In this document: positions 2,391 through 37,821 of the stretch, one piece after another
How positions within the stretch are numbered: position 1 is the stretch's first letter
Layout: the number at the start of each line of letters is the position of its first letter
Assembly: GCF_030684315.1 (NCBI RefSeq)
Contig: NC_081381.1
Coordinates: forward strand, 29,871,514-29,935,513
Length of the DNA stretch: 64,000 nt
Direction: 5' to 3'
Origin: Stegostoma tigrinum
Lineage: Eukaryota
Translations under genes and position numbers: made by a program
The notes under the pieces: generated by a model
Seen by the model: only the letters and a program-made list of their open reading frames with translations
The model's database searches: none
What the model was told of the DNA's origin: nothing

Positions 2391-2759
2391 GTCAAACACA
2401 GGAAAAACTGGAGAAACTCAGCAGGTCTGGCAGCATCTGTGGAGAGAAAAAAGGAGAGAGATCTTGAGAAGTGAGCGGTTTTCTCTCCACAAATGCTGCA
2501 CAACCTGCTGAGTACGCCCGGCAATTTAAGAGACTGTCCCCTCCGAAGGACCTCAAAAGTGAAGGGAGCTGGCAGGTCAGGTTTCAGAAATTCACGGAAT
2601 GGTCAAGGAGGTTCTCAACGAGCAGCCACAGCGGGTAAGGATCATGGATGGGGCTGAGATTTGACTGGTTTCTTTTTTCCACATCCATTGGGAGTTCCCG
2701 GTGTCATGACGATTCCTTCAGAGATCACACTCCCGCACTCTCAGTGACAGCCGGAGAGG

Positions 2760-11284: not shown

Positions 11285-11465
11285 AAAACAAAAAACTGTG
11301 GATGCTGGAAATCAGAAACAAGAACGGAAATTGCTGGAAAAGCTCAGCAGGTCTGGCGGCATCTATGGAGAGAAGTTAGAATTAACGTTTTGGGTCCAGT
11401 GACTCTTCCTCGGAATATATGCTGTCAGACCTGGTGAGCTTTTCCAGCAACTTCATGTTTTGTCT
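11285..11465. mobile_element. Palindromic mini-element of a third PLE-like 3'-end family (related copies at about 2393-2525, 3880-3990, 27600-27728, 31370-31470, 60567-60670)
   Basis: gctggaaaagctcagcaggtctggcggcat / atgctgtcagacctggtgagcttttccagc arms; degenerate CTGAnGA-AGGGTC-ACTG-GACCC-GAAAC motif. Confidence 0.7.
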
Positions 11466-12804
11466 CTTCCTATTTGAGTTTGTTCTGATGATTTAAAATA
11501 CATCATCCACTTCACACTGGTTTGGGTTCACTTAAGATGCAGTTCTCATGCAGTAAGTAATTCAGGTTTGTATTTACATTAGAATGGGACAGCCTTGTGC
11601 AACAGGTGGGCTACAGCAGCTGGGGATGGGCAACAGATGCAAGCCCACTTCCTACTAACCTCTACTCACCAGCCCTCTTAAAACAGACACGCAATAACCA
11701 GGAACAATGCTTAACAGCTACCTGCTGAGGACAGGTGAGGCAGACTAGGGAGGGGACAACTAACTGCAATTAACCATGGAAGGGAAGGATGGTATCAAAT
11801 AGAAAGGGAAAAATAAGGTGGCAAAGGTAAGTTGTACGCAAGAGGTTTCAGAAAGTTGTAAAAATAACCAAAACATAACAAAAAGAAAATACACTGACAA
11901 CAAACTAGCAAGTAATATAGAAACTAACAGTAAGAATTTCTATAAATTTATAAAAAGGATGATAGAGACCAAAGCAGACCTAAGTCCTTTAAACAATGAG
12001 GCTGGGAAAATAATAATGGGAAACCACGAAATGGCAAAGCAGTTGAATAAGTACTTTGCATCAGTCTTCACAGGGTGGACATTAATAGCACTCGAAAATT
12101 ACTTAATAATCATGGAGCTAAATGTGGAAGGAGGGGCAGGAAGAGGAGGAGGAAATAACTACGTTATCATGAGAGAAATAAAAAGACTCAGGCAGAAAAA
12201 AAAAGGATGAAAGCCCAATAACACCCCTGGCCCTGATGGGTTACATCCTACAACTTTAAAAAGTTAACAAAGATATTGAGTGCGCTCTGGTAATCTTCCA
12301 AGAATCTTTAGATTTGGGAAAATCCCAGACAATTGGGAAACTGCCACAGTAATACCCTTATTACAGGGATAGAGAGAAAAATCAGGAGGCTATAGGTCAA
12401 TGAGCTTACCATCTGTCACTGGGAAAGCGTTAAGTGTCTACAATAAAGGATACAAAATGAAATTAAACAGAGTCAGCATGGTTTCGTGAAGGGGAAATCA
12501 CACCAGACACATTTATTGCAGCTATTTCAGGAGACAGAAAGAAGTTTAGGTAAAAGTGATCCAGTAGATGTTATAGAGTCATAGAATTGTACAGCACTGA
12601 AACAGATCCTTTGATCCAACCCGTCCATGCTGGCCAAATATCTTAGATAAATTTAGTTCCATTTGCCAGCTTTTGGCCCATATCTCTCTAAACCCTTCCC
12701 ATTCATCTACGTATCCAAATGACTTTTAAATGTAGTTGTACCAGCCTCTAACACTTTCTTTGATGGCTCATTCCATACATGTACTATCCTCGGCATGAAA
12801 AAGT

Positions 12805-15155: not shown

Positions 15156-15266
15156 CGTCCTCATGTTCCGCTTCTTGAGTCTCCTGGCCTTGGTGGAGTA
15201 CAGGAAAGCTCTCCGCACCGCCCGCAAAGCAAGGCTGTAACATCGGTTCTTCCTGCCGCGGAAATG
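15156..15266 (-). CDS. MRPL20: MRPL20 exon 2 ([37 protein letters not shown])
   Basis: tttgttttcgcAG acceptor, 111 nt, GTAAAC donor; carries the bL20 signature [10 protein letters not shown]. Confidence 0.96.
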
Positions 15267-15436
15267 CTGCGAAAACAAAAAGACGACTCTCATGAAAATC
15301 GGGTCCCGGTGACACAGAAAAGGCCCAACACAGCCAAAGGCATTCGTAAAGCGGTCTCAGGTCCCGAACTGCAATCCGGTTCCCTCATCCACCCACTAGG
15401 CCAGGCTCCAATGTAGTTCTCGTTGGCCCCTCTCAC

Positions 15437-15877: not shown

Positions 15878-17732
15878 GTTTAAAAACTTAATTACAGTCC
15901 TCTTGATATTTTAACAAAGTCAGTTGTTTCAGTAGAGTTCCAGATCCCTGTTTAAGCTCTCCTGGGGCCTTGAAAACCTTCTGGCCATATTGATGTTCTG
16001 CTTTGGAACCTGCACTAACCCCCTGTTGCAAGTTGATCCACTACAGCTACAACACTGGCGTTTCCCCACAATGTGAAAAATCGCCTGACTATGTTCCACT
16101 CACAAAAGGTAAGTCAAATCCAGCCTGAGAATTACCACCTCCATCGATTCTCCGTCTTCAACCAAGTGCTGGGAGGTGTCATTGACAGTGCTTGTTAAGC
16201 TGCATTTGCTTTTCTCCTCAGTAATGCTGAGTTTGTATTCCACCAGGTCCGCTGGCTCCTGACCTCATTAGAGCCTTGGCTCAAGATGAAGAAAAGAGCT
16301 CAATTCTGGAAGAGAGTTGAGAAGGATGGCCCTTGATGTCAAGACAACATTTCACTGAGTGTGACATCAAGGAGCTCCGGCGTAACTGGGGTCAGTGGGA
16401 ATCGGGAAGAAGCTTTCTGCTGGTTGGAGTCATACCTACCAGAAAGGAAGATAGTTGTGATTGTTGGAGGTCAATCATCTCAGCTCCAAAACTTCTCTTC
16501 AGGAGTCCCTTAGGCTTGACTCCTTGACTCAAACCGTCTCAGCTGTTTGATCAATGACCTTACTTCCATTGTAAGGTTAGAAATGGGGTTGCTGATTGTG
16601 CAGTCATGAATGTTCGGCACTGTTCATAAGTTCCCAGATATTGAGGTAGTCTGTGTTCGTATCCATCGAGGCCTGGATAATATCCATGCTTGGGACAATA
16701 ATAAGTAGTAAACATCAGGGCAGAAGCGCTTCAGCGGAGGCTGCATGGTGCTGGTGGTGTTGTCTGGCGGGGAGAAGGATTGTTTCCATGAAGACCGGTC
16801 AGCTTGGCGAGCCAACTAATAACTCCAGTGGCTTTTTGTCATTTACATACAGGATTTGGATGTGAATATAGCGGGTATGGTCACTAAGTTTGTAGATGAC
16901 ACCAAAACTGGAGGTGCAATTGACAGTGAAGACGGTCACCTCAGAGTACAATCGGATGTCGATCAGGTGGGCCAATGGGCCGAGGAGTGGCAGATGGAGT
17001 TTAATTTAGATAAATGTGAGGTGCTGCATTTTGGGAAGGCGAATCAGGGTAGGACCTATACACTTAACACAAGGTCCTGGGGAGTGTTGCTGAACAAAGG
17101 CACCTTGGAGTGCAAGTTCATTGTACCTTGAAAGTGGAGTCGGAGGTAGATAGAATAGTGAAGAAAAGGCGCTTTGTATGCTTGTCTTTATTGGTCAGTG
17201 CATTGAGTTTGGGAGTTGGAAGGTCATGTTGTGGCTGTACAGGACATTGGTTAGGCCACTTTTGGAATACAGTGTGCAATTCTAGTCTCCCTGCTATAGG
17301 AAGGATGTTGTGAAACTTGAAAAGGTTCAGAAAAGATTTACAAAGACGTTACTGGGGTTGGACGATTTGAGCAATAGGGAGAGGCTGAATAGACTGGGGC
17401 TATTTTCCCTGGAGCTTCAGAGAGTGAGGGGTGAATGTTATTGAGGTTTATAAAATAATGAGGGTCATGGATAGGGTAAATAGACAAGATCCTATCCCTG
17501 GGGTGAGGAGTCTGACACCGCAGAGTATAGATTTAGGATGAGAGGGGAAAGATTTGAAAGGGACCCCAATCTTTTTCACACAGAGGGTGGTGTGTGTAGG
17601 AAATGAGCTGTTGGAGGAAGTGGTGGAGGCTGGTACAATAACAACATTTAAAAGGCATCTGATTGGTTATATAAATAGGAAGTATTTGGAGGGACACAGC
17701 AGGCCAAGCAGCATCTCAGGAGCACAAAAGCT

Positions 17733-17760
17733 GACGTTTCGGGCCTAGACCCTTCATCAG
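17733..17760 (-). ncRNA. Minimal hammerhead ribozyme motif (PLE family A, inverted arm)
   Basis: Exact reverse complement of 19921-19948. Confidence 0.75.
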
Positions 17761-19920
17761 AGAGGGGGATGGGGAGAGGGAACTGGAATAAATAGGGAGA
17801 GAGGGGGAGGCGGACCGAAGATGGAGAGTAAAGAAGATAGGTGGAGAGAGTATAGGTGGGGAGGTAGGGAGGGGATAGGTCAGTCCAGGGAAGACGGACC
17901 GGTCAAGGAGGTGGGATGAGGTTAGTAGGTAGCTGGGGGTGCGGCTTGGGGTGGGAGGAAGCGATGGGTGAGAGGAAGAACTGGTTAGGGAGGCAGAGAC
18001 AGGTTGGACTGGTTTTGGGATGCAGTGGGTGGGGGGGAAGAGCTGGGCTGGTTGTGTGGTGCAGTGGGGGGAGGGGACGAACTGGGCAGGTTTAGGGATG
18101 CAGTAGGGGAAGGGGAGATTTTGAAACTGGTGAAGTCCACATTGATACCATATGGCTGCAGGGTTCCCAGGCGGAATATGAGTTGCTGTTCCTGCAACCT
18201 TCGGGTGGCATCATTGTGGCAGTGCAGGAGGCCCAAGGTGGACATGTCATCTAGAGAATGGGAGGGGGAGTGGAAATGGTTTGCGACTGGCAGGTGCAGT
18301 TGTTTGTTGCGAACTGAGCGGAGGTGTTCTGCAAAGCGGTCCCCAAGCCTCCGCTTGGTTTCCCCAATGTAGAGGAAGCCGCACCGGGTACAGTGGATGC
18401 AGTATACCACATGCTATGCCTGCCTCTTTGTAGGTTACGTGGAACAGTCCCTCTTCCGCACCTACACAGGCCCCAAACCCCACCTCTTCCTCCGGTAAAA
18501 CATTGATGACTGTATCGGCGCCGCCTCTTGCTCCCCAGAGGAGCTCGAACAGCTCATCCACTTCACCAACACCTTCCACCCCAACCTTCAGTTCACCTGG
18601 ACCATCTCCAGCACATCCCTCACCTTCCTGGACCTCTCAGTCTCAATCTCAGGCAACCAGCTTGTAACTGATGTCCATTTCAAGCCCACCGACTCCCACA
18701 GCTACCTAGAATACACCTCCTCCCACCCACCCTCCTGCAAAAATTCTATCCCCTATTCCCAATTCCTCCGCCTCCGCCGCATCTGCTCCCACGATAAGAC
18801 ATTCCACTCCCGCACATCCCAGATGTCCAAGTTCTTTAAGGACCGCAACTTTCCCCCCACAGTGATCGAGAACGCCCTTGACCGCGTCTCCCGCATTTCC
18901 CGCAACACATCCCTCACACCCCGCCCCCGCCACAACCGCCCTAAGAGGATCCCCCTCATTCTCACACACCACCCTACTAACCTCCGGATACAACGCATCA
19001 TCCTCCGATACTTCCGCCATTTACAATCCGACCCCACCACCCAAGACATTTTTCCATCCCCTCCCCTGTCTGCTTTCCGGAGAGACCACTCTCTCCGTGA
19101 CTCCCTTGTTCGCTCCACACTGCCCTCCAACCCCACCACACCCGGCACCTTCCCCTGCAACCGCAGGAAATGCTACACTTGTCCCCACACCTCCTCCCTC
19201 ACCCCTATCCCAGGCCCCAAGATGACATTCCACATTAAGCAGAGGTTCACCTGCACATCTGCCAATGTGGTATACTGCATCCACTGTACCCGGTGCGGCT
19301 TCCTCTACATTGGGGAAACCAAGCGGAGGCTTGGGGACCGCTTTGCAGAACACCTCCGCTTAGTTCGCAACAAACAACTGCACCTCCCAGTCGCAAACCA
19401 TTTCCACTCCCCCTCCCATTCTCTAGGTGACATGTCCATCATGGGCCTCCTGCACTGCCACAATGATGCCACCCGAAGGTTGCAGGAACAGCAACTCATA
19501 TTCCGCCAGGGAACCCTGCAGCCATATGGTATCAATGTGGACTTCACCAGTTTCAAAATCTCCCCTTCCCCTACTGCATCCCTAAACCAGCCCAGTTCGT
19601 CCCCTCCCCCCACTGCACCACACAACCAGCCCAGCTCTTCCCCCCCCACCCACTGCATCCCAAAACCAGTCCAACCTGTCTCTGCCTCCCTAACCGGTTC
19701 TTCCTCTCACCCATCCCTTCCTCCCACCCCAAGCTGCACCTCCATCTCCGACCTACTAACCTCATCCCACCTCCTTGACCTGTCCGTCTTCCCTGGACTG
19801 ACCTATCCCCTCCCTACCTGCCCACCTACACTCTCTCCACCTATCTTCTTTACTCTCCATCTTCGGTCCGCCTCCCCCTCTCTCCCTATTTATTCCAGTT
19901 CCCTCTCCCCATCCCCCTCT

Positions 19921-19948
19921 CTGATGAAGGGTCTAGGCCCGAAACGTC
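19921..19948 (+). ncRNA. Minimal type-I hammerhead ribozyme motif (PLE family A)
   Basis: CTGATGA-A-GGGTCTAGGCCC-GAAA-CGTC: conserved core, stem II, and palindromic ACGT in place of stem III. Confidence 0.75.
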
Positions 19949-21859
19949 AGCTTTTGTGCTCCTGAGATGCTGCTTGGCCTGCTGTGTTCATCCAGCCTCA
20001 CATTTTATTATCTTGGAATTCTCCAGCATCTGCAGTTCCCATTATCTCTGATAGTATTTGGAGGGATATGGACCAATTGCTGACAAATGGGACTAGATTA
20101 ATTTAGGATATCTGGTCAGCATAGACGAGTTGGACCGAAGTGTCTGTTTCTGTGTTATGCAGCTCTGTCTCTGACTGTATCACTACACAAGTGACAGGCA
20201 ATTACTGTCTTCAACAAGAGAGAATCTAACCGTCTCCTCTTGACATTCAGTGGCATTACAATTGCTGAATCCTCCATTTTTAACATCCTGGAGGTTACCT
20301 TTGATTACTAACCAAACTGGACCAGCCACATAAATGTTGTGGCTACAACAACAGGTCAGGAGCTGGGAAGTTTAAGGCATATAACTCATCTCCTGAATCT
20401 TTAACGTTCACAATGTACAAGACAGAGTTCAAGAGCAGATGAGGGCAGCTGTAACAACACGCAAGGAGATTGACACCATCCAGGACAATGCAGCCTGCTC
20501 GACTGGCATCACATTTACCAACTTTAACATTCACTTCCTCCACCATCAGCACCAAGTGGCAGCTGTGTGTACCATTGCTAAGGTGCACTGCAAGAACTCA
20601 CCTTGACTTCTTTGACAGCACCTTCCAACTCGTGACCTCTACCACCCAGAAGAACAAGGGAAGCACCACCACTTGCAAATTCCCCTCCACTGTTGTGTTA
20701 AAATCCTGGAACTCCCTTCCCACTTGTACTGTTGATATACTTACGTCTTAAGAACTGCAATGGTTCAAGAAGGAAGTCCACTACCACCTTCTCCAGGGCA
20801 ATAGATAATGGTCTGGCCAGCCATGCCTACTTTCCTGAAAGAATTTTTAAAAATGGGTGTGCTTCCTTTTTAAAATAAAAGCTAAAAATCTCTCTGTGTA
20901 ATAAGCAGAGTGACCAACTCTTGAATTAAATGAGGAGACAAGTTGGTTTGGAAATGGACGGCAGAACAAAAACAGTGCCATCTGTCAGTTTGGAAGCAGA
21001 CCTCCCAAGATGCTGCTTTGGGAAGACCTGACCGGCAACATCAGAGAAAAAGCCAAAATGTGGAATGGTCCCAGAAAATCTGGTACAGTTAGTTGTTCAG
21101 CCTGTAGTTTCAGTTCCCGCTCTCTAAATTTTACATTAAACATGTATTTGTTGTCTTGATCTTAACTGGCTCAAAAATCCCCAAACTGTTGCTAGTTCCT
21201 AACTTATAGAAGTAAGCCTTTCAACTTAACTTCTGCCTGTTGCATCTTGCCATGAGTTTGCCACCCTTCCTGACTCTATCCCTCATGCCTCTCTGGACTC
21301 TCCTGCTTGCCACCTTTGTCACCCCTCCCCCTCTCTGTGGTCCCACTTGTCTCTCCTCCTGTTGTCCCTCCTAACTTTGCCTTTGCTACTGCTCTTCACT
21401 CTCCCCCTCACTGTTCCGTCCATTTGCTGATTCTCCCCTTCACTGACTCTCCCAAGTCTCCCACTTACAGCCTCTCCTCCTGAGATGTCAGTGCTTCTCT
21501 CGTTCTGGCCTCTTCTGCAAACCTCACTCCCCACCCCCCAGTATTAGTGGCTGTATTTTCAGCTGCTAATATCTTAAGCTCTGGAACTCCATCACTAAAG
21601 TTTTCTGCTTTAAGTCTACCTTTTTGACCAAGCTACCAAAATGTCTCTACATGTAGCTCCTGCAAAGTTCTTGGAGATGTTTTACATGTGCACAGGAAAT
21701 ACAAGTTGTTGTTATTAAGCCAACACTGTTACAACTATCAAGTGATCATTCATTTTAGAAAATATGTATTGGTCACAGTAAACCTAAAGTCATACACATA
21801 TTCATACCCATAAATTACACATTTTTAAATCTAGATGTATATAAAATATTTAGATCTTT

Positions 21860-23021
21860 TGGATGTGAGTTTGTTCGCTGAGCTGGAAGGTTAGTTTTCA
21901 GACGTTTCGTCACTATTCTAGGTAACAGCATCAGTGAGCCTCCGACGAAGCGCTGGTGTTATGTCCCGCTTTCTGTTTATCTGGTTAGGTTTCCTTGGGT
22001 TGGTGATGTCATTTCCTGTTCTTTTTCTCAGGGGATGGTAGATTGGCTCCAAATCAATGTGTTTGTTGATCGAGTTCCGGTTGGAATGCCATGCTTCTAG
22101 GAATTCTCGTGCGTGTCTCTGTTTGGCTTGTCCTAGGATGGATGTGTTGTCCCAATCAAAGTGGTATCCTTCCTCATCTGTATGTAAGGATACGAGTGAT
22201 AGTGGGTCATGTCGTTTTGTGGCTAGTTGATGTTCATGTATCCTGGTGGCTAGCTTTCTGCCTGTTTGTCCAATGTAGTGTTTGTCACAGTTCTTGCAAG
22301 GTATTTTGTAGATGACATTCGTTTTATTTGTTGTCTGTATAGGGTCTTTTAAGTTCATTAGCTGCTGTTTTAGTGTGTTGGTGGGTTTGTGGGCTACCCT
22401 GATGCCAAGGGGTCCGAGTAGTCTGGCAGTCATTTCAGAAATGTCTTTGATGTAGGGGAGAGTGGTTACGGTTTCTGAGCCCGTTTTGTCTGTTTGTTTG
22501 GGTTTGTTGCTGAGAAATCGGCGGACTGTGTCCATAGGGTACCCATTCTTTTTGAATACGCTGTATAGGTGATTTTCAAACTGGCAGAAAGCTAGCCACC
22601 AGGATACATGAACATCAACTAGCCACAAAACGACATGACCCACTATCACTCGTATCCTTACATACAGATAAGGAAGGACACCACTTTGATTGGGACAACA
22701 CATCCATCCTAGGACAAGCCAAACAGAGACATGTACGAGAATTCCTAGAAGCATGGCATTCCAAACGGAACTCCATCAACAAACACATTGATTTGGAGCC
22801 AATCTACCATCCTCTGAGAAAAAGAACAGGAAATGACATCACCAACCCAAGGAAACCTAACCAGATAAATAGAAAGCGGGACATAACACCAGCGCTTCGT
22901 TGGAGGCTCACTGATGATGTTACCTAGAATGGTGATGAAACGTCTGAAAACTAACCTTCCAGCTCAGCGAGCAAACTCACATCCAGAACCTCAACCTGAG
23001 CTACAAATCTTCTCAAAACTC
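21860..23021 (-). mobile_element. Penelope/Poseidon-like PLE fold-back insertion (minus arm 21860-22577, plus arm about 22577-23021) with 12-bp TSD
   Basis: NVIYKIPCKNCDKHYIGQTGRKLATRIHEH GIY-YIG; arms are reverse complements; TSD ATTTAGATCTTT at 21848-21859 and 23022-23033. Confidence 0.92.
22908..22947 (+). ncRNA. Minimal hammerhead ribozyme motif (PLE family B)
   Basis: Same as 34561-34600 with a G-U pair in stem II. The inverted copy at 21901-21934 has a core mutation (CTGATGC). Confidence 0.75.
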
Positions 23022-25826: not shown

Positions 25827-26255
25827 TCATTTTTGCATTTCAGAAATGGTTTTTCTAAATAAGCCAAAAGACTTTTCCAAGGCATGTGCTGATGCTGCAG
25901 TGAGAGGAGTTTCATCCCATTGATTAGTGGCGTCCATATTGGCCCCTTTGCTTAGCAGGAGGTGGATGGTCTGCTCATGCCCCTTCTCAGTGGCCAGGTG
26001 GAGTGGAGTTTTCTGCAGCCAGCCCCGGGCTTCAATGTCAGCTCCATGGTTTATTAGATATTCTACAACTGTAGTGTCACCTCTCTCTGCTGCTCGGTGA
26101 AGCGCTGTCATCTTCAAGCTGTCTCGGATGTCCACACTGATCCCTCGTTGTGTCAGCACTTCCATTATTTGGAGATGACCCCTCACTGCTGCAGCTTGAA
26201 GAGCAGAAACTCTATTACTGTCTGCAGCTCCACGTGCAAGTAAGTCTGTGATTAC
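25827..26255 (-). CDS. ANKRD65: ANKRD65 last coding exon (VITDLLARGA...GWLQKTPLHLATEKGHEQTIHLLLSKGA...SEMQK*)
   Basis: tttgtttcctgtAG acceptor, 143 codons. GWLxKTPLHLA..KGH and NQW resemble the human ANKRD65 C-terminus; position between MRPL20 and TMEM88B matches known synteny. Confidence 0.88.
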   Translation of the reverse strand, partial: VITDLLARGAADSNRVSALQAAAVRGHLQIMEVLTQRGISVDIRDSLKMTALHRAAERGDTTVVEYLINHGADIEARGWLQKTPLHLATEKGHEQTIHLLLSKGANMDATNQWDETPLTAASAHALEKSFGLFRKTISEMQK

Positions 26256-27208
26256 CTACAGGAAACAAAGAACAACGCATTATGCTCTAAGTAGTGTCTG
26301 TGCTGAACTTTATAGAGAAGTGCTATATATAATAAAGCACAAAATGAGGCTTTACTAGTCCATTTTGGCTCCCTGCAATTAGTCTCACTCATCCCTTCCA
26401 CAACAGCTCCTCCACCACCCTATCTTAATCCAAATTTTTCTGCAATTGCTTAGCCATGCCCTTTTGGAAATTTCAGTTGTACCTGACTTCACCTGGGGCA
26501 GCGGTAGAAATTATGGATCTGGTATTCTCCTGGCCTGGACACCTGACCCAGCTCGACAGTAAGGCCCAGCCCCCATCTGAGCCTAGCAGGTCCTCCTGAA
26601 GCCGAGGGCCTGTACATGCCCTTCCCACTAACACCCTCCTGCCCTGGTCCCTGTCTTAACCATTCTCTCTGGTTGTTCAGGTCCCTAAAGCTTTGTCTGC
26701 ACATCCATCCAATGAGTGCAAAAAAAAAACAATGATGTCAGATGTTAATATCTGATGTAGAAGTAGGACTGGGAATGTGTGGGAATTAGGAGCAGGTGTG
26801 GGCTAGTCAGGTTGTAGTCTCAATTCCACTTTCCTGTCTGCCTTGTCTAGCAAAAACCTAATCCTTCAAATTGAAATTCAATGACCCTGCCTTTCCTGCT
26901 AACTGCAGTTGAAAATTTGGCAAACTAACAACTCTCAAAAAGCATCCAATCTCCTCATCTTTGTGTTAAGAGGGAAACCCCTTATGTTTAGTGTCTTCTA
27001 ATACAGATCTCCTACAAAGAGGAAGCATCCTCTGTCATTTCCCTCAGATTGCCCCATATTCACCTAAACTGCAATGGGAGTACGCTCAACATGTTCAATG
27101 TTTCTTCATAAGAGAAGCCTTTCATCCCAGGAATGAGTAAAGGGAATCATCTTTGATCTGCATCTAATACAGCTGTATCTCTCATGAATAAGGAGAACAA
27201 AACTATAG

Positions 27209-27373
27209 ATAACAAAGTGTGGAGCTGGATGAACACAGCAGGCCAAGCAGCATCTCAGGAGCACAAAAGCTGACGTTTCGGGCCTAGACCCTTCTCTAGG
27301 CCCGAAACGTCAGCTTTTGTGCTCCTGAGATGCTGCTTGGCCTGCTGTGTTCATCCAGCTTCACACTTTATTA
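27209..27373. mobile_element. Palindromic PLE-derived mini-element (ANKRD65 intron)
   Basis: Inverted arms of the PLE 3' end folding back inside the hammerhead motif (ggcctagacccttc|tctaggcccgaaacgtc). Confidence 0.88.
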
Positions 27374-28017
27374 GCTGCCCATCTGAACCATTTTTTCCAA
27401 TGTTAACTCAATGCGGCATTGGAAGCACTGAGCATGCAAATTAAATGAGCATTCAGGCTGGATGCCGGGGGATTGTATCATCACACTTCTGGACTATATT
27501 CTCATCGTGCGAGTCAATTTCCATAAATGTATCATTTTCAGGCATGAATAATAGCTTTCAAACCCTGAAGGTATCTCTGACAGACCTGAATATGCAAAAA
27601 TAAAACAAAGAACCACAGATGCTGAAGTTCCGAAACAAAAACAGAAAATTGCTGGAGAAATTCAGCAAATCTGCCAGTGGAGAGGAAGCAGAGTCAATGT
27701 TTCAAGTCCAGTGACCCTTCATCAGAATTACCAACACATTCCCACTCCCAACTTTCCAAAGAAGTCTGTTCATAAAATTAAAGGTTGTCAGGGGTGGGGG
27801 GGTGTGCAGTGGGAGCAAGGTGTAGAATGTGGCACATTTTAGCCCTTTACTGATATATAAACTATGGATGAGCTTGGCTGTAGTAATTTTAAGAAATTGT
27901 GTTTTTGCTTGAGTGCCAAACAGAAACAGAAGCTTATGTGCAATCTGGTTCTACCAATGCATTGTGATCATGGCTGTGATATATTGTTGGTCATGTTAAC
28001 ACTAGAACTGTTCCTAC

Positions 28018-28567
28018 CTCCTGATGGCCATTAGCAGCAGCAATTGATAATGCAGTCCTTCCCACAGCATCTTCAGCATTGACCAAGGCTCTGTTGTCCA
28101 GCAGCAATTGAATAATTTCACTGTTTCCAACTTCCACTGCCAGATGCAAAGCTGTCATGTTGTCACTTGTTGTATAATTGACTGAAGCTCCTTTCGAAAG
28201 TAGAAATTCTACTATGTGGGCTTGGTTGCTCACAGCTGCCCAGTGCAATGGAGTCCAGCGTCTTGCATCAGACATGTCTTGGCTGGCACCGTAGCTCAAG
28301 AGTTGCTGCAGGGTCATTATGTGCCCGCTTGCAGCTGCACAATGCAATGGTGTCAGCCCAGAGCTGGTATGTGCACTTGTCAAAGCTCCCCGATGCAGCA
28401 GGTACTCAGCAATCTGGCTGTGCCCATTCCACGCGGCTCGATGAAGAGCAGTCCAGCCATGTCTGTCTGTGGCATCGATTGGTGCTCCCCGGTGAACAAG
28501 AAACTTAACCAGTGCCAGACAGCCACTAAACGCTGCATGATGTAGAGCAGTCCACCCATATTCATCC
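28018..28567 (-). CDS. ANKRD65: ANKRD65 middle exon (DEYGWTALHHAAFSG...GRTALSIAAANGHQE), about 5.5 ankyrin repeats
   Basis: cactcgcAG acceptor, 550 nt (1 nt + 183 codons, phase-compatible with the previous exon), GTAGGA donor; repeated TxLH motifs. Confidence 0.9.
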
Positions 28568-28735
28568 CTGCGAGTGATAAGATGACAATGTCAGAGCAGC
28601 TAAGTGCTTAACTCTTCCCACACAATGTGTGCAAACTGCATGTCATGGATTCTGCCCAGCCTTGTTCATTTTCTGAGAAAAGCTCCAGAAAATACCCCCT
28701 TCTAAATTACCAAAATTAAACATATTCTATTGTGC

Positions 28736-28887
28736 CAGAGATAATGGGAACTGCAGATGCTGGAGATTCCAAGATAATAAAATGTGAGGCTGGATGAACA
28801 CAGCAGGCCAAGCAGCATCTCAGGAGCACCTGTGCTCCTGAGATGCTGCTTGGCCTGCTGTGTTCATCCAGCCTCACATTTTATTAC
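28736..28887. mobile_element. Palindromic PLE-derived mini-element, 15-bp TSD (ANKRD65 intron)
   Basis: Near-perfect inverted arms centred at about 28830; TSD CATATTCTATTGTGC at 28721-28735 and 28888-28902. Confidence 0.9.
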
Positions 28888-29473
28888 CATATTCTATTGT
28901 GCAACCATTCTCTAACATACCAGAATACAACCAGGGACGGGGAAAGATCACTTGATTATCGACCACCATCAATCCACTCCCCAATTTATACTATCACCTG
29001 AGATTTTAAAAAAAACTCTGGCAGACTTGGAAGAGAAAGTTCCTCGATGTGCCAAGGCTCTGAATGGGGCTCAAAACTCAATGTATTTGAACTTTGCAAC
29101 GCTGAGCCTCTTCTGCTGTGCAGTATTTGATTCCTTTGAATGCTCTTATATGATGGAACCTCTTGAGTTCAGAAGAGGCAGCCAAATTGGCTGAAGTTTG
29201 GAGTCAAGGAAATTCTCAAACTCCTCATACCTGAAGAAGTGAAAGAAGATTGATGAAGAATGTTCATTGCCCAGGAGATTAGCTTAGGGTATCCAGGAGA
29301 ATTTTGAAACCATCAAAGGATTTGAAGGAGAACCATTGGTCGCTTGGTGCCCAGGCAGCAGTGTGTAAACTACCTACAACACTACTCTACTGACTCCTAT
29401 GGTATGTACATAATGCCATTTCACAATGACCCTCTGGGTCAGTGCATTTTCGCAGCAATAACTGGCTGCCTAC

Positions 29474-29652
29474 CTGCCATCTATTGGTGCACCACGCTGT
29501 AACAGTGTCTTCACAATGCTGCTGTTGCCACTATAAACTGCCTGGTGGAGATCAGTCCATTTGCCCTGTTTTATGCCTCCTGTCATATCATGTTCCACCT
29601 CACTGACTGCTTCACTGTCATCCACCAGTCTCCGAAACAATTCCATTGTCAT
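29474..29652 (-). CDS. ANKRD65: Ankyrin repeat domain 65, first coding exon (from MTMELF; exon acceptor at 29707)
   Basis: WTDLHQAVYSGNSSIVKTLLQRGAPIDG is an ankyrin repeat. AG|GTAGG phase-2 donor; polypyrimidine acceptor at 29708-29730. The start Met is uncertain because the frame is open back to the acceptor. Confidence 0.8.
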
Positions 29653-30343
29653 CCCAGGGATGTCCTCCTCCTGTCCAGAGTCAGTGAGCTTAACAAACCA
29701 TTCAAAACTGGAAAATACAAAGAAAACAATATTTTGAATGTTTTGAGGGGTAATGTCTGTACATGTATGATTTTTAAAAAATGACACAGTATAATTGGAA
29801 TAGGAAAGGGATAGGAAAAGGAGCTGCATATTGATTTGCCTTGATTTATTTTAGTCACATGTACCCGAGTACAGTGAAAAGTTTTGTTTTGCGAGCAGTA
29901 CAAGCAGATCATAGCAAACAAGGACATACAGATCATAGGGAGCTTAGACAGTGAGGCATACAATGTTACAGCTGCACACGAGGTGCCCTAGGCAAGATCA
30001 ATATTAGCAAGATCAACAGTAGTTTAAGTTACAGGGGTCCATTCAGCGTTTGAACTTGAGAGATGGAATTGGTGTGGGATGTGGCATTTTCAATATTTGT
30101 CCTTCGTAAAACCTTTTTAGAAATTTGGGACAGGTGCAGAATATATCATAGTTCCTACAATTTGTGCTTTCCTATCCTCAGCTCAAGCATGCCTGAGTGT
30201 TCTTGATATCCAGCATTGAGAAAGCTGTTGGAGGATTCACAAAACAAAACGCAAAAGCTGAGAAATGTCACAACTTGTTAAAGGTCTCACAAATCAGCAC
30301 AATCAACTCTTCATTGCGGAGGCCAGTCATACCATGGCCAGGA

Positions 30344-30565
30344 TAACAAAGTGTGGAGCTGGATGAACACAGCAGGCCAAGCAGCATCTCAGGAGCACAA
30401 AAGCTGACGTTTCGGGCCTAGACCCTTCATCATTTGTTGATGAAGGGTCTAGGCCTGAAACGTCAGCTTTTGTGCTCCTGAGATGCTGCTTGGCCAGCTG
30501 TGTTCATCCAGCTTCACACTTTGTTATCTCGGATTCTCCAGCATCTGCAGTTCCCATTATCACTG
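30344..30565. mobile_element. Palindromic mini-element derived from the PLE family A 3' end, 15-bp TSD
   Basis: Arms of about 89 bp around a TTTGT loop (30433-30437), plus a tail of about 40 nt; TSD ATACCATGGCCAGGA at 30329-30343 and 30566-30580. Confidence 0.9.
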
Positions 30566-31489
30566 ATACCATGGCCAGGAGCCTGTTAACAATTCTTAAG
30601 ATATAGCCAAACCTACAAAGAGGTAGCAAGAACTATCCTGCCTTACTACTTCACTGACACTTGCAAAAAGCAGGGGTTACATTTACGGCAACATTTCTTT
30701 GCATGCGCTCACTTTCCTGTTATTTCCTTTTTTTTAAAGGAGACAAGAACAGCAGGAGATGGGAACCAAAGAACAGAAAGTCTTCGCCAGCAGGTCATAC
30801 AAAGGACATTTTGAAGACAAGAAAGTTTAGAACTATTAGAGGAAAAGTGGAGGTTATACGTCCAAGATTCTCACAGGATTTGACCTAGTAGATGCAGAAA
30901 GATTATTTTCCCCTGTGGGAAAGCCCTACAACCAGAGGACAGAAGGGGTCACACATTTAAGATACAGATGAGGAGGAATTTCTTCTTCAATCTTTGGAAT
31001 GATTTATTGCAGAGGGCTGTCGGGGCTAGATTATTAAAGTGATATTAGGGCTGAGGTAGTCAGGCCTTTCATCAGCGAGGGAGTCATTGGTTATATGGAG
31101 AAGACCGGGAAGTGGAGTTGAGGATTATTGGATCAGCCGTGACCTCATTGAATACTGCAGCAGACTTGATGGGCCAATTGGCCTATTGTGCTCCTATATA
31201 TTATGGTCTCTTAGGGGGAGGCAGAGAGGCCCATCCCAATGTGCATCATTTTTGTTTCATTGATGAGATGCAAAAACCTTGACAAAATACCAGCCATTTA
31301 CCTGCACAACCACAATGTGCTGCTGATGAAAAATTACCCCTATGTCTAATTTACCAGCCTGAAGCAGAGTCACTGCAAATGCTAACTCTGTTTTCTCCCC
31401 ACAGCTTCTGCCAGATCTGCTGAGTTTCACCAGCAATTTCTGTTTTTGTTTCTGATCTCCAGAATCAACAGCTATTGTTTTAGAAATAG

Positions 31490-31677
31490 TATGAACTGCA
31501 GATGCTGGAGAATCTGAGATAACAGGGTGTAGAGCTGGATGAGTACAGCAGCAAAGCAGCATCAGAGGAGCAGGAAGGCTGGTGTTTCGGGCCTTGACCC
31601 CTCTTCAGAACCCTTCCTGCTCCTCTGATGCTGCTTGGCCTGCTGTATTTATCCAGCTTTGCACCGTGTTATCTCAG
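31490..31677. mobile_element. Older palindromic PLE-derived mini-element
   Basis: Diverged inverted arms (gcagcatcagaggagcaggaagg / ccttcctgctcctctgatgctgc). Confidence 0.75.
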
Positions 31678-31744
31678 GTATTTGTTTTATTCTAACTTAT
31701 TGTTGGTGTTTTGTTTCTAACATTGTCTTGACTCATTATAATAT

Positions 31745-32856
31745 CCAGCTCTGAACTCTGCTCTGAAACATAATGGCCTGGATGATTTTTATGTGAATTA
31801 CTGAAGGAAACATTATTGAATCAAGCATCTCACTATTGGCCAATAGCTTGACTATCATTTGAGTGAAGTGCATCTGCAAGTTGCTAAAACAAAGTCTTTA
31901 AACACATGACTTCCATTCTGATTAATGTAAAGGAAGAAATTTTAAATATCATTGACTTTTTCAATTTGTGAAGCAATTTTTCTCGAAGAATGTCATGTAA
32001 GTACAAAACATCGTGAAGGAATCATGTGCTTATAATGTAAGAACGATACCTGATGATGAATACATTAAAAATCATCAATATATTCTGTTCCTTTTAGGTT
32101 CAGTCATGAGGTGTGAAGACCAGCCCTCCTTGGTGTGTCTGCAGCACTATTCTGTCAGGGTGTACAACAAGCACTCGTTGTTTGCAATGGGTCAATAGAG
32201 TCATAGCGTCACACAGCATGGAAACAGACCCTTCGATCCAACCAGTCCATGCCGGCTGTAATCCCAACTAAACTAGTCTCACCTACAGCTCCTGGTCCAT
32301 TTCCTACAAACCTTTCCTATTTATGTACTTATCTAAGTGTCTTTTAAACATTGTAACTAAACCTGCATCCACCCCTTCCTCAGGAAGTTCGTTCCATGTG
32401 ATGCCTTTTTAAAATCTCTCTCCTCACCTTAAAAGTATGGCCCTAGTCTTGAAATCCCCCAACCTAGGGAAAAGGCACCTCTCATTAACTCTATCTATAC
32501 CTCTCATGAGTTTACACCTCTATTATGTCAACCTTCCACCGCCTACGCTCCGGCGGAAAAAGTCCCAGCCTATCCAGCCTCTCTTTATAACTCAAACCTT
32601 CCATACCCGGCAACGTCCGGCAACATTTGCTTCACAAATTGAAAAAGTCAATGATATTTAATTTCTTCCTTTACATTAATCAGAATGGAAGTCCTGTGTT
32701 AAAAGACTTTGTTTTAGCAACTTGCAGATGCACTTCACTCAAATGATAGTCGAGCTAATGGTCAATAGTGAGGTGTTTGATTCAATAACGTTTCCTTCAG
32801 TAATTCACATAAAAATCATCCAGGCCATTATGTTTCAGAGCAGAGTTCAGGGCTGG
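31745..32856. repeat. About 230-bp inverted duplication (31745-31976 vs 32627-32856)
   Basis: The reverse-complement match is visible over the full length with scattered substitutions. Confidence 0.92.
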
Positions 32857-32900
32857 TAAGTCTCTTCTGAACCTTCTCCAGCTTAATAATATCCTTCCTA
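32197..32900 (-). mobile_element. CR1 3' end containing an inverted copy of flanking DNA
   Basis: Typical antisense CR1 3' end; interrupted at 32627-32856. Confidence 0.8.
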
Positions 32901-33900
32901 TATTAACAGTAAGACAAACTTCATCAAGAAATCGGTCTTGTGATTAGTTTATAGTCATTGAATCTTTTTTAAAGTTGATTCAAGAGATGTGGCCTTTGCA
33001 GGCTGGGTCAGCATTTTGTTGCTGCTCCTTAATAGTTCCTGAGAAGGTACTGTTGGAATGTGAGAGTGTAAATGGGGACGAATTTTTGCCAGAATTGAAA
33101 AAGCAGCTCAATACTGTTCAAGGAACAAACGATAGAGACTGGGAAAGTGGCTATTGGGTAGTTCCTTTGAGACATGAAGCTAATTCAGTTCAATGCAATT
33201 CAATATAAAGAAAACATTCCTAATTTCTCCTGGTATTGCACATGGAGACCAAAGGATTCCCCGGATAACTGCATGGATATAATTCAGTTCTCGTTTTAAA
33301 ATGGCTGTGATAGTGGGAATCCTTTAAAAACTAGAGGAACAGCAGCAGCAGTCACATGTAAAGGGATGTCAGCATGTTGTACGTGGCCAAACGAGGAATC
33401 CAAGAGGTAAGATGGCTGTTTGACGGTGGCCCACCTTGTCCGTGGGGTCTTCCGGCCCAGACATTGAGTGATCGTGAGCAGCTGTGCAGGCAGAGTTTGG
33501 TTTACAAACAGTGGAGATGTCTGAGGAGAGCCACAGGCCTCCAGCCCAGTTGATGTTGCGATGCCTTTGACATTCAAAGTTGCAGCAATCTGCATCCACT
33601 GGGGTTGGCTCATTGCAGGCTGCAGCTGGAGGCAGAGCTAACCGCGGGGCACACTCCCATGAAGCAGATTCGAGATTTACTCATTGTCAGGGCTAAATAT
33701 TTCATCAGATTCCACATTCTCTTTTCATGTCTACATCCTGCAGCAGTCTGACATAGGCCCTCTCTTGGACATGGAACCACATATTTCCTGTCCACTGCTA
33801 TCAGACAGGCTAGACCTGCTCGTTAAACTTAATGTCAAGGGAAACAAGGGAAGCCAGGAGATAACACAGTGTGGAGCTGAAGGAAGAAGAAAAGGGGCTT

Positions 33901-33982
33901 GTAGTTGTGGCTGAGTGGCTAAGCTGATGGATTCGAAATCCATTTGGGTTTCCCCATGCAGGTTTGAATCCTGCTGACTTCA
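33901..33982 (+). pseudogene. Decayed tRNA-Ser (anticodon position CGA) or tRNA-derived SINE head
   Basis: Colinear with vertebrate tRNA-Ser GTAGTCGTGGCCGAGTGGTTAAGGCGATGGACTNGAAATCCATTGGGGTTTCCCCGCGCAGGTTCGAATCCTGCCGACTACG, but body CpGs are deaminated and the T-loop has changed TTCG>TTTG. Confidence 0.85.
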
Positions 33983-34221
33983 TTTCTGCAGCGTGCAGGT
34001 TTTAAACAACTTTGTGTTGGGTGATTTGTCACTCAAGCTCACAGCTAAGGGGTTTGTAGGTAAGCCGGAAGGCTAAATAAGGTAGTCAATGAGTGGTTCT
34101 TGAGGGAGCTGAACCTATACTGGTCCCCTAGTTCCCTACAGCAGAAAACTCCATAAGATTGATTCAAGAAAGGGACACTGTGCGAAACTGCCCAGAGTTT
34201 AGTTCTTAAAACACCTTTTGT

Positions 34222-34677
34222 TTTAAGGACAAACTGGCAGAAAGCTAGCCACCAGGGTACATGAACATCAACTAGCCACAAAACGACATGACCCACTATC
34301 ACTCGTATCCTTACATACAGATGAGGAAGGACACCACTTTGATTGGGACAAAACATCCATCCTAGGAAAAGCCAAACAGAGACATGCACGAGAATTCCTA
34401 GAAGCATGGCATTCCAACCGGAACTCCATCAACAAACACATTGGCTCCAAATCAATCTACCATCCCCTGAGAAAAAGAACAGGAAATGACATCACCAACC
34501 CAAGGAAACCTAACCAGATAAATAGAAAGCGGGACATAACACCAGCGCCTCGTCGGAGGCTCACTGATGATGTTACCTAGAATGGTGACGAAACGTCTGA
34601 AAACTAATCTTCCAGCTCAGCGAGCAAACTCACATCCAGAACCTCAACCTGAGCTACAAATCTTCTCAAAACTCGCT
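34222..34677 (+). mobile_element. Poseidon-like PLE 3' fragment with 12-bp TSD
   Basis: Near-identical to 22577-23021; TSD AACACCTTTTGT at 34210-34221 and 34678-34689. Confidence 0.9.
34561..34600 (+). ncRNA. Minimal hammerhead ribozyme motif (PLE family B)
   Basis: TCA-CTGATGA-T-GTTACC-TAGAAT-GGTGAC-GAAA-CGTC-TGA: 3-bp stem I, 6-bp stem II, ACGT palindrome. Confidence 0.8.
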
Positions 34678-35651
34678 AACACCTTTTGTGTTTTGCGATG
34701 GGGATCTTACGCTAATATGAATTACATGGTGTGGGGAGGCTTGTTTGTTGGGCTGAATGGCCTATTTTTCAGCCATAATGGAAACAGCAAGCAGTTGAAG
34801 CATCCCAACAATAAAATGGTGTTGGACAGCAGCCAGAAACTGCAGCCGTTCCCACAGTGATTGATCCAATCATATCACAGAAGGTGCTTTTATTCTGAAA
34901 TATGTTAAACTTCAATAATTGACTTGCACTCCTGTTTTTGATGAAATAGCATTTCCCACGGGTGTTTAACCTTGAACATTCTTTTTTGATTAAAATTTCA
35001 TCAAACAAATAAAATAGACACTGTGGTGGCCTCCTACACTGTAATATGTTTTCTGGCATAGCTACAAATAGTCTCCTGCTGATTCCCCACTGCAGGAAGA
35101 AAGGGAACTTTCCAAATTCAGGAACCAATGGCTAAATTCACTAACCAGCAGAAAACATCTGGTCACACTCTCCTTCGCTCAATGTTGAGACTTTTGAGGA
35201 CCATTTCTCTTGGTCTCTTGCAGCTGCTTACTGAGCTAAATTGCCTGGATGCTTTATTTGCATTAAATTGGCGTCTATGGGTCGATACAGGCTAACTGCA
35301 TTGACTTAATCTATAGAGAGAAAAGATTTAGTAATTTGTGGGAGTGACACTGTAAGAAGCTCCACACGATGTTTGACAGCACAACCTCACGGTTTACAGT
35401 TGTAATGTCAGGACAGGGCAAGAGCTTAGGAGAATGGTTCCATTAACCCTTTCTCACTCTCCATCTCATTGACCAGGATTGAAAACTTCATGATATGGTA
35501 CTTCTGTGGGAAGTGTTGGTCTAGTAGTAAACTCACTAGATTAGCAATCTCAAGCCTCAGGATAATGTTCCAGGGACATGGGTTTGGGCAGATGATGATA
35601 TTTGAATTCAATAAGCATCTAGAGATTTTTTAAAAAGTTAGTCTAATAACA

Positions 35652-36033
35652 AGTGGAGCTGGAGATTCACTGCAGGCCAGGCAGCATCAGAGGAGCAGGA
35701 AAGTTGACGTTTTGGGTCGGGACCTTTCTTTTTTTTTCCGAAGAAGATTCCTGACCCGAAACATCAACTTTCCTGCTCCTCTGATGCTGCCTGGCCTGCT
35801 GTGTTCCTCCAGCTCTACACTGTGTTATCTCTGACTGCAGGTGCTGAAAACTAGATATTGCTGGGAAAACTCAACAGATCTGGCAGCATCTGTGGTAAGA
35901 AAGCAGAGTTAACATTTTGGGTCCAGTGATCCATCTGTTCTGAGGAAGTGTACTGGACCTGAAACATTAACTCTGCTTTCTCTCCACAGATGCTGCCAAA
36001 CCTGCAGAGTAGTTCCAGTAATTTCTGGTTTTG
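35652..36033. mobile_element. Two adjacent palindromic PLE-derived mini-elements of different subfamilies (35652-35836; 35845-36033)
   Basis: Each has inverted arms and a degenerate CTGANGA...GAAAC motif near the centre. Confidence 0.75.
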
Positions 36034-36057
36034 TATCTTGTTTACTAATGTCCTTTA

Positions 36058-36560
36058 GAACATAGAACATAGAACAATACAGCGCAGAAAAGGGCCTTCG
36101 GCCCTTAATGTTGCGTCAACCTGTGAACTAATCTAAGCCCATTCGCCTACACTATCCCATCATCATCCATATGCTTATCCAAGGACTGTTTAAATGTCCC
36201 TAATGTGGCTGAGTTAACTACATTGGCAGGCAGGGCATTCCACCCCCTTACCACTCTCTGAGTAAAGAACCTGCCTCTGACATCAGTCTTAAATCTATCA
36301 CCCCTCAATTTGTAGCTATGCCCCCTTGTACAAGCTGAAGTCATCATCCTTGGAAAAAGACTCTCACTGTCCACCCTATCTAATCGTCTGATCATCTTGT
36401 ACGCCTCTATTAAATCCCCTCTTACCCTTCTTCTCTTCAAGGAGAACAGACCCAAGTCCCTCAGCCTTTCCTCATAAGACCTTTGCTCCACACCAGGCAA
36501 CATCCTCGTAAATCTCCTCTGCACATTTTCCAATGCTTCCACATCCTTCCTGCAATGGGG
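36058..36560 (-). mobile_element. Young CR1 3' fragment
   Basis: VQRRFTRMLPG..FFTQRVVRGWNALP; (CATAGAA)n tail on the plus strand. Confidence 0.9.
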
Positions 36561-36723
36561 TGAAGGGGAAAGGAAATCTGCCAGACTTACAGAGTCCGGC
36601 CGACATGTGACTCCAGCCACACACAGCAATGTGATTGACTCTCAAGTGCCCTCCAGAATTTAGTAATGGACAATAAACGCTGCTTTAGCCAGTGATGCCC
36701 ATGAACAACCTTTACAAAACTGG

Positions 36724-36876
36724 GATAACAAGGTGTAGAGCTGGATGAACACAGCAGGCCCTGGGTCTAGGACCGAAACATCAGCCTTCCTGCTCCCTGA
36801 TGCTGCTTGGCCTGCTGTGCCCATCCAGCTTGACACCTTGTTATCTCAGATTCTCCAGTATCTGCAGTTCCTACTA
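36724..36876. mobile_element. Palindromic PLE-derived mini-element
   Basis: gataacaaggtgtagagctggatgaacacagcaggcc ... ggcctgctgtgcccatccagcttgacaccttgttatc plus tail. Confidence 0.75.
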
Positions 36877-37074
36877 CCCTTTTACAAAACTGGCGCAGTT
36901 CTGCAGTCACCCCATGCTGACTTCATCAAAGTGGATCTACTGCAGCACCAAATAACTCAACAGTTATTTTCGCAGGAGTCTATATTTCAATAAAGTGAAA
37001 TTAGTTGAAGAATGTAATTGCAATTTAGTAATATCTTGGTCGGGGAGGGGGCGCGGCGGGGAAAACACATTCAG

Positions 37075-37110
37075 CTGCAGTACTGCTAAATAGCAGCAGA
37101 TGGCAGTGCT
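37075..37110 (+). promoter_or_regulatory. CTCF-like site with upstream (U) motif
   Basis: CTGCAG-TACTGCTAAATA-GCAGCAGATGGCAGTG; GC box GGGGAGGGGGCGCGG at about 37042-37056. Confidence 0.6.
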
Positions 37111-37678
37111 GACTGTTTTACAGTCTCTACTCCTACTTCACAGGAGAATTACCAAACAAAACCTGGCAGTTCTTGGAACATGATGAGACACCTTTGGTTA
37201 GCATTTAGCAGAACCTGGCTTCCAAATTCTTGACCCTTGTGTTTTCGCATTTTCCTTTCCTCCTTTTTCTGGGATCCCAGTTTCTGCTGTTTCTAAAAGT
37301 ACTCACCATTTGTTTTGGAAATCCCCTGTTCCTGCTTCTTATTAAAACATTCTTACTGGCTTTGACAAATCTATATGCTTCTTGCGAATTTTTAGTTGAG
37401 ATTCCTCGATCCCATTTTTCAAATCCTGTCTGCCCTGCTGTTCATTGCAGCCAGTTCATCACCGTTTCCACTGGATTCCTTCACCATATCCAGGATCTCC
37501 AGGAGATGGAAGGAAAAGACAGATAGATAGAAGGAAGACAGATGAATGATCTAAAAAGTGAGATGGGATTAAAGAAAGACGGTAAAGTACGGGCCAAGGA
37601 TAGGAAGAAAAGTAAAGAAAAAATGTAACAAGTGTGACGGATGAAAGTGGAGTAGTGTCAGACTTACCAAAAGCAAAG

Positions 37679-37821
37679 AGATAACAAAGTGTGAAGCTGG
37701 AATGAACACAGCAGGCCAAGCAGCATCCCTTCTTCAGAAGAAGGGTTCTGAAGTAGGGTCTAGGCCTGAAACGTCAGCTTTCCTGCCCCTAAAATGCTGC
37801 TTGACCTGCTGTGTTCATCCA
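37679..37821. mobile_element. Palindromic PLE-derived mini-element
   Basis: Inverted arms; central degenerate hammerhead ctgaagtagggtctaggcctgaaacgtc. Confidence 0.7.

Follow-up and report, generated by a model that had tools for sequence, protein, structure and literature searches.

The window analysed here is a 64,000-nucleotide stretch of the Stegostoma tigrinum genome (NCBI RefSeq assembly GCF_030684315.1, contig NC_081381.1, positions 29,871,514 to 29,935,513 of the forward strand), and window positions are counted from its first letter. It contains a Neptune-type Penelope-like element (PLE), exons of an ankyrin-repeat gene and, between positions 27,209 and 37,821, eight short hairpins in which the 3' terminus of a PLE is joined head to head to an inverted copy of itself (hereafter referred to as stumps; Table 1). 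All eight were recovered, by an inverted-repeat scan and BLAST, at the places given in the original prediction, which had been made from the sequence alone. The scan found six of them, together with copies at 2.4 and 11.3 kb, with arms of 35–91 nt and a complementarity of 80–100%. The hairpin at 37679 was missed by the scan; BLAST found both of its arms, as it did for the scan-listed hairpin at 35845. Descent from a single PLE terminus, proposed for all of them, holds for seven of the eight, which match window 19900–20053 (family 1), but a sister family (family 2) accounts for the hairpin at 35845 and for the copies at 2.4 and 11.3 kb, and BLAST located additional members of it at 27632, 31377 and 60567. 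The two arms of a hairpin are unequal, one of them carrying an additional tail of about 38 nt. Where two clean target duplications of 15 bp had been claimed, three were found, two of 15 bp and one of 13 bp. Two of the window hairpins fold with z = −19 and −24 relative to shuffles, and the intronic ones are predicted to form double-stranded RNA in the pre-mRNA.

The hairpins at 27207 and 28736 are indeed intronic in an ankyrin-repeat gene, as had been suggested, but the name ANKRD65 was not confirmed, the similarity search being swamped by long ankyrin proteins and yielding no name for this gene. An assembly artefact was ruled out as the source of the hairpins. In two samples of the same species, short-read contigs lead from unique flanking sequence into each arm of the hairpins at 27207, 28736 and 30342 (none spans a centre), and a contig from a related species crosses the empty sites (28720 to 28888 and 30328 to 30566), where a single copy of the target is left. 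The hairpins at 28736 and 30342 are therefore real, lineage-specific insertions. One end of the hairpin at 27207 is found in the related species too. Family-1 stumps often lie in or beside other PLE termini or bodies (window 31377–31677 and 35644–36040; block B126 near 14995; L201; L068:893–1024), which may reflect a preference for PLE sequence as the insertion target.

The parent element of family 1 is present in the window as a long two-armed insertion, and all element coordinates below are those of its copy at 18413–20053 (the reference). This sense arm comprises, in order, the C-terminal part of the reverse transcriptase (RT), a zinc linker, the GIY-YIG endonuclease, the 3' untranslated region, a hammerhead and the tail. 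The two PLE frames in the window are partial and gave no Pfam match. In a longer copy of the parent, a 769-residue frame gives weak matches to RVT_1 (E = 3.6e-5) and to GIY-YIG (E = 0.0027), each under its curated Pfam cut-off, and its protein has 2,030 homologues, many with the same domains; the nearest named relatives are from carpet sharks (Stegostoma tigrinum, 94%; Rhincodon typus, 89%; Chiloscyllium punctatum, 77%). As expected of an endonuclease-containing (EN+) PLE, one open reading frame (ORF) combines RT with a C-terminal GIY-YIG domain, and copies show partial tandems (pseudo-long terminal repeats, pLTRs), an inverted 5'-truncated copy and a tail of 30–40 nt on one end. The translation has a cysteine pair between GIY and YIG with histidines downstream, corresponding to the CCHH motif, and a C-x4-C-x2-C linker upstream of the endonuclease, corresponding to the CX2-5CxxC linker that Neptune shares with Nematis (both defined in PMC8557442). 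The label 'Neptune-type' is used because of this linker between RT and endonuclease. The N-terminal region of the PLE ORF contains a 21-bp tandem repeat that varies in copy number (L194 body, about 760–900 nt past the tail; L217, L229, L230). For family 2, a GIY-YIG frame 46–58% like that of family 1 lies upstream of two of the nine long copies tested.

The terminus bears a minimal type-I hammerhead motif with CUGANGA and GAAA cores, an extra base before helix II, G10.1–C11.1 and palindromic 15.2–16.2, as listed for minimal PLE hammerheads (PMC4209133). A descriptor of the motif matched 91 times in 1.5 Mb, in three families that differ in helix II, and did not match shuffled DNA; folded as a monomer, the leader is of ordinary stability (z of 0.4–0.9). 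The PLE origin of the hairpins, the hammerhead motif in their arms and the target duplications, all part of the original prediction, are thus borne out. In full copies, the terminus and tail continue straight into the ORF leader and start, so that the hammerhead-plus-tail serves as the 3' end of an insertion and also as the 5' leader of the RNA. The window also holds a third PLE family, of Poseidon type, at 21857–23021 and 34230–34680, with its own hammerhead variant, an inverted pair, a 12-bp duplication and a tail of about 33–37 nt on one arm.

Table 1 Features of the window that bear on the stumps. Element features are given on the reference copy.
Feature	Position	Strand	Details
Parent Neptune-type PLE, long two-armed insertion	17687..20053	+	Inverted arm 17687–18412, sense arm 18413–20053; 14-bp target duplication
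Major 5' stop	19915..19921	+	About 4 nt before hammerhead core; putative capped RNA start
Minimal type-I hammerhead motif	19921..19952	+	Core 19921; helix II 19929–19940; palindromic minimal helix III; predicted cut 19948/19949
Outer-end zones	20010..20053	+	Two putative RT start zones, 20010–16 and 20046–53; tail of about 38 nt between
Family-2 hairpin	2393..2527	.	
Family-2 hairpin	11314..11468	.	
Family-1 hairpin	27207..27376	.	Centre 19926/19932; without tail or duplication; arm haplotypes differ; intronic
Family-2 remnant	27632..27727	.	Absent from the original prediction
Family-1 hairpin	28736..28886	-	Centre 19955/19956; tailed arm left; 15-bp duplication; intronic; related species without copy
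Family-1 hairpin	30342..30568	+	Centre 19922/19922 plus a few extra bases; tailed arm right; 15-bp duplication; related species without copy
Short family-2 hairpin	31377..31453	.	Absent from the original prediction
Older family-1 hairpin	31482..31677	-	Tailed arm 78% to reference; adjoins family-2 copy
Older family-1 hairpin	35644..35830	.	76–78%; directly adjoins family-2 hairpin
Family-2 hairpin (sister PLE)	35845..36040	.	Own hammerhead variant
Asymmetric family-1 hairpin	36724..36878	+	Tail and 13-bp duplication
Asymmetric family-1 hairpin	37679..37821	.	Duplication looked for, none found
Ankyrin-repeat host gene exons	near 29480–29720, 27991–28590, 25850–26260	-	Exon 27991..28590 lies between the two intronic hairpins

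Frequencies were determined in 1.25 Mb taken from 41 arbitrary places on large contigs, together with 200 kb around the window. The initial similarity search enriches the centre of its own query and was therefore left out of all frequency estimates. Individual stumps have also been passively amplified within larger repeated segments on several small contigs (L190–L193, L022–L029), inflating similarity searches. Short family-1 pairs number 46 in the 1.25 Mb (about 37 per Mb), which, if the sample is representative, corresponds to some 118,000 (86,000–157,000) in the genome of 3.2 Gb; stumps make up about 0.7% of the sampled DNA. The 10.6-kb interval that holds the eight hairpins contains five pairs by the detector against 0.58 expected and is about eightfold denser than average. 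Approximately 100 stretches as dense as this are expected by chance genome-wide, and no local cause is therefore needed: what had been described as a local swarm is instead a genome-wide feature. Unmatched hairpins of 120–160 bp outside the three reference families were also noted (B086:27290–27410, B161:31281–31428 and B156:28323–28479). At least one of them holds a hammerhead-like core, so more PLE families are likely to make stumps.

Terminal matches, of which there are 322 in 1.514 Mb, form 85 head-to-head pairs, 2 tail-to-tail pairs and 4 tandems. The 3' ends of 157 young arms (at least 90% identity) are bimodal, 81 lying at or before 20023 (mostly at 20010–16), 76 at 20044–53 and none between; 61 of the same 157 arms start in 19913–19936 and five at 19949. 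One tailed and one tail-less arm are combined in 46 of 48 young pairs, the others having two tails (one pair) or no tail (one pair). A target duplication of at least ten bases is present in 84 of the 111 insertions examined. These duplications measure 10–18 bp (mode 14) and flank arms from about 60 bp to over 1 kb, and the same anatomy extends up to arms of 2.6 kb. The stumps are the shortest form of the known 'inverted copy plus tail' PLE insertion, the arms of which range from about 60 bp to 2.6 kb.

Arm lengths are coupled in young pairs (30 short–short, 16 long–long, 2 mixed; Fisher p = 1e-10), and five of the 16 long pairs are symmetric where 0.56 are expected (p = 9e-5). The tail-less arm extends more than 12 nt further 5' in 13 of the 48 young pairs and the tailed arm in 7, the two being within 12 nt of each other in 28. 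Since a folded-back cDNA cannot copy sequence that it never contained, in the 13 pairs with the longer tail-less arm both arms must have been templated by RNA. Insertions with a single arm may end at one outer site or the other, tail-less ones with a duplication of their own among them, so that the inner site behaves like a true start. Arms diverge by 3.5% inside one insertion compared with 7.2% between insertions, which suggests a single shared template. Primer–template microhomology at target junctions is barely over random (1.95 versus 1.67 nt and 1.63 versus 1.46 nt).

The centres at which the arms meet gather at two points. At the first, the edge of the hammerhead, both arms reach the core with at most 24 nt between them at 6,931 loci genome-wide (reversed-pattern control, 0). 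Among the first 50 of these loci listed, centres are diverse, often with small insertions, and by eye none with a young-type flank passes 19915. The commonest centre, 19917/19917, accounts for 6 of these 50 loci and for 888 genome-wide; in 15 loci that have it, 6 haplotypes are represented and 13 carry duplications of 11–15 bp. Short single-arm copies of family 1 stop at 19915–19929 in 14 of 22 cases, and in family 2, where the upstream sequence is different, the stop has the same offset (836 loci; one of the first 50 listed runs well past). After a stop 3–4 nt before the core, the first untemplated base in family 2 is C in about 15 of 19 junctions (by eye, with six ambiguous junctions excluded; p about 0.001–0.01). 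A splice acceptor was considered as the cause of this stop and rejected by eye, there being no AG before 19917 and no common upstream exon at the centres. At the second point, 1,009 loci genome-wide join both arms just downstream of the core. Perfect palindromes centred on 19949–52, the four bases past the predicted cut, number 595 genome-wide and make up 36 of the first 50 loci listed; for control 4-nt palindromes the figures are 21 (GGCC), 110 (CTAG, looser pattern) and 2 of the first 50 listed (ACGT, five bases away). The first 20 cut-site loci listed comprise 4 haplotypes and are variable at both outer ends (15 of 20 with duplications of 10–16 bp), and hence arose many times.

Direct observation thus provides the two-arm anatomy, the flanking duplication, the empty sites, the fixed outer ends, the coupled lengths and the two centre hotspots. 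The hairpins are separate, very short insertions of a Neptune-type PLE, and we consider it likely that they were produced by two-strand dual priming on one RNA with the cDNAs joined head to head. The enzyme of the element would cut both DNA strands about 14 bp apart, and both cut ends would prime copying of the same RNA from two start points some 38 nt apart. The two cDNAs would run off the capped or ribozyme-cut 5' end of that RNA and would then be joined. Because the hammerhead-plus-tail is also the 5' leader of the ORF, priming at this copy would leave only about 60–135 nt to be copied; priming at a downstream copy would give long arms on both sides. Centres other than the two hotspots would reflect host end-joining with nibbling and small insertions. 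The stumps themselves are likely dead ends.

The two stops carry separate degrees of confidence. We lean towards the major one being a capped transcription start, at which a cap-templated C would pair the cDNA ends by a terminal GC and so give rise to the commonest centre. Both families have an initiator-like sequence with its +1 four bases before the core. Capped 5' ends of L1 insertions are marked by an extra G (PMC11702581), and the untemplated C of family 2 would by analogy be the mark expected from a cap; in Drosophila virilis, the Penelope promoter and start site lie within the repeat (PMC2377424, PMC6765202). That the second stop is the ribozyme cut we hold somewhat more firmly and regard as probable: the simplest reading of the junctions is that both cDNAs ran off ribozyme-cut RNA, ended in the self-complementary AGCT and paired cleanly through it. 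The full statement, namely that about 100,000 frozen products record both nicks priming on one RNA and map two RNA 5' ends, of which one would be capped and lie 4 nt before the core and the other would be made by the ribozyme, is put forward tentatively, as a serious possibility.

A number of observations weigh against this account or parts of it. For the capped start, the untemplated bases were counted by eye, a scripted tally covering 17 junctions, most of them pre-selected; the initiator-like motif of family 1 at 19917 is weak, being one of five matches in 365 nt; where a repeat copy precedes an intact ORF start, its beginning varies (18549 to about 20040) and is not at 19917; single-arm copies show no consistent extra G; and the third, Poseidon-type family, with its tail of about 37 nt, has no clear stop at the hammerhead edge in 22 matches. 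For the ribozyme, helix I has two obvious pairs in family 1 (three or four in family 2), where the class has 4–5 bp; a D. virilis variant with a 2-bp helix I is on record (PMC4209133). Rfam reports no hammerhead at gathering level in the window, nor by E-value at 19800–20100. For an anole element, PMC11167929 found no RNA reads that end at the cut site, nor any requirement for cleavage in vitro. As to the single template, 6 of 54 pairs have arms with differences at two or more diagnostic sites, an indication that some events involved two RNAs or two copies of the repeat, and arm-to-arm conversion could be an alternative source of the similarity between arms.

Dual priming may also hold with different causes for the junction hotspots. 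The major stop would then mark either a site where the enzyme pauses or a 5' end produced by an exonuclease that stalls on the folded ribozyme, and AGCT would be no more than a favoured microhomology. The stop does lie at helix I's 5' edge, where family 1 also enters a C-rich tract, and AGCT is self-complementary in any case; however, family 2 stops at the same offset without a C-run, untemplated C is in excess (by eye), and use of three neighbouring 4-nt palindromes is 5- to 28-fold lower, so that we view this alternative as possible but doubtful. More remote is snap-back self-priming, in which the cDNA from the tail end folds, copies itself to 20010–16 and then joins the other target end. 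It has been proposed for head-to-head PLE palindromes, on an antisense template (PMC3846280), and snap-back junctions have been seen with R2 proteins (PMC11371274). It explains the symmetric centres (28 of 48) and the near-identical arms and may account for some copies. By contrast, it cannot yield a tail-less arm longer than the tailed one, by hundreds of bases in some of the 13 pairs concerned, and it leaves unexplained the tail-less single-arm insertions with a duplication, the arms of different haplotype and the zero-loop centres. Fold-back of a single cDNA, one of the two origins offered in the original prediction, therefore fits poorly and is improbable as the general mechanism.

The other origin offered, a non-autonomous family resembling miniature inverted-repeat transposable elements (MITEs) or short interspersed nuclear elements (SINEs), whose whole units would be copied by the PLE protein, is very improbable. 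Tabulating the loops, as had been advised, shows that identical centres do recur at many loci (888, 595 and 48), and internally deleted, non-autonomous derivatives of the parent PLE do exist. Yet the recurrent centres occur in 6 haplotypes (15 loci) and 4 haplotypes (20 loci) with varying outer ends, and they represent about 13% and 59% of heterogeneous sets. Relative to the tail, the 19926/19932 centre is found either way round, and the anatomy is continuous up to 2.6-kb arms. A uniform interior inherited as a unit, as expected of a propagating MITE-like or SINE-like family, was thus not found, and the heterogeneity of the centres and the spread of the commonest ones over several haplotypes instead uphold the independent formation of each hairpin. 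Terminal inverted repeats of a DNA transposon, with a target duplication of fixed length, are likewise at odds with the asymmetric ends and the 10–18 bp duplications. Equally hard to credit is that stumps were long palindromic insertions whose centres were deleted later through palindrome instability. Long palindromic insertions are common and their decay would yield symmetric centres and coupled arm lengths, but single-arm copies, which have no palindrome, stop at the same place, both families have a sharp boundary, which for family 1 is 19915 and for family 2 has the same offset, and some stumps have arms that match the young reference with 100% identity.

Other features of the window lie outside this subject. 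At 33840–33990, a tRNA-like match (Rfam, 38.8 bits, 33901–33982) is preceded by a short fragment of the family-1 terminus and is probably a SINE head or a tRNA pseudogene. A 232-bp inverted pair of 95% identity (31745–31976 and 32627–32856, about 650 bp apart) is unrelated to the PLE termini tested and is possibly a DNA-transposon remnant or a small inversion. On the minus strand at 15180–15300, adjoining a GC-rich stretch, lies a sequence that by eye resembles the first coding exon of mitochondrial ribosomal protein L20.

These findings bear on how PLEs make inverted, tailed insertions and on the role of the hammerhead. Their main use is as an extensive natural archive of the PLE insertion reaction, the anatomy itself being already known: thousands of junctions at nucleotide resolution separate the insertion models, and positions 19917 and 19949 are testable at the bench. 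If the proposed mechanism is true, the junctions would furnish in vivo evidence of germ-line cleavage by a PLE hammerhead and of reverse transcription of the cleaved RNA, and would account for the long-known inverted-plus-tail structure without self-priming. The stumps are in addition near-perfect palindromes, some of them intronic, which repeat annotation could misfile as MITEs.

The inverted-copy-plus-tail anatomy of EN+ PLEs is established (Craig et al. 2021, PMC8557442; Arkhipova et al. 2013, PMC3846280); the 2013 paper put forward self-priming to account for it. With the inverted-pLTR-plus-tail insertions described there, the stumps share a 5'-truncated inverted copy in head-to-head orientation, a tail of 30–40 nt on one end, a target duplication, partial tandems and a hammerhead in the repeat. 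They differ in that most insertions in this genome are reduced to the terminal 60–135 nt in both arms, in their number (by extrapolation about 10^5 copies), in their coupled lengths and in their two centre points. In the open-access literature, we found no description of two-armed copies of stump size, of coupled arm lengths or of stops at the hammerhead edge or the cut site. The closest experimental system is the anole Poseidon element PAc, the protein of which cuts and extends both strands in vitro, starting at two sites on either side of the tail (Frangieh et al. 2024, PMC11167929). PAc and, on the reading preferred here, the window element have in common that both strands are cut and extended, that two RT starts in the leader between repeat and ORF bound the tail and that primer–template homology is slight. 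The window element is of Neptune type, however, and its copies accumulate at the predicted cut. The main text of that study does not tie two-strand extension to inverted insertions and leaves later steps unvalidated.

Animal non-LTR (non-long terminal repeat) retrozymes (bioRxiv 10.64898/2026.07.22.740005) are, like stumps, short, non-coding and PLE-derived, with a type-I hammerhead. Retrozymes, however, are head-to-tail tandems of units that each have a hammerhead, whereas stumps are single head-to-head pairs (85 compared with 4 tandems), and the cut-site class lacks the ribozyme core. The retrozyme pattern is seen in a separate derivative of 654 bp (L223–L228; C4:126.925–126.932 Mb), a head-to-tail array whose units consist of the first 277 nt of the PLE body and the last 380 nt or so, with one hammerhead per unit; further PLE derivatives with internal deletions are present (L212, L215, L221 and L233). 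Stumps also share with MITEs a short, numerous, non-coding, hairpin-forming and duplication-flanked character, and differ from them in their asymmetric ends (46 of 48 pairs), 10–18 bp duplications, variable centres and retroelement parent. In twin priming by LINE-1 (long interspersed nuclear element 1), the inverted segment usually comes from further upstream, does not overlap the rest and is primed internally at sites that vary, whereas the two PLE primers would have fixed starts 38 nt apart and would copy one and the same stretch, so that a palindrome results. What the two processes have in common is the priming of both target ends on one RNA and an inversion set within an intact target duplication of 12–18 bp (PMC11702581).

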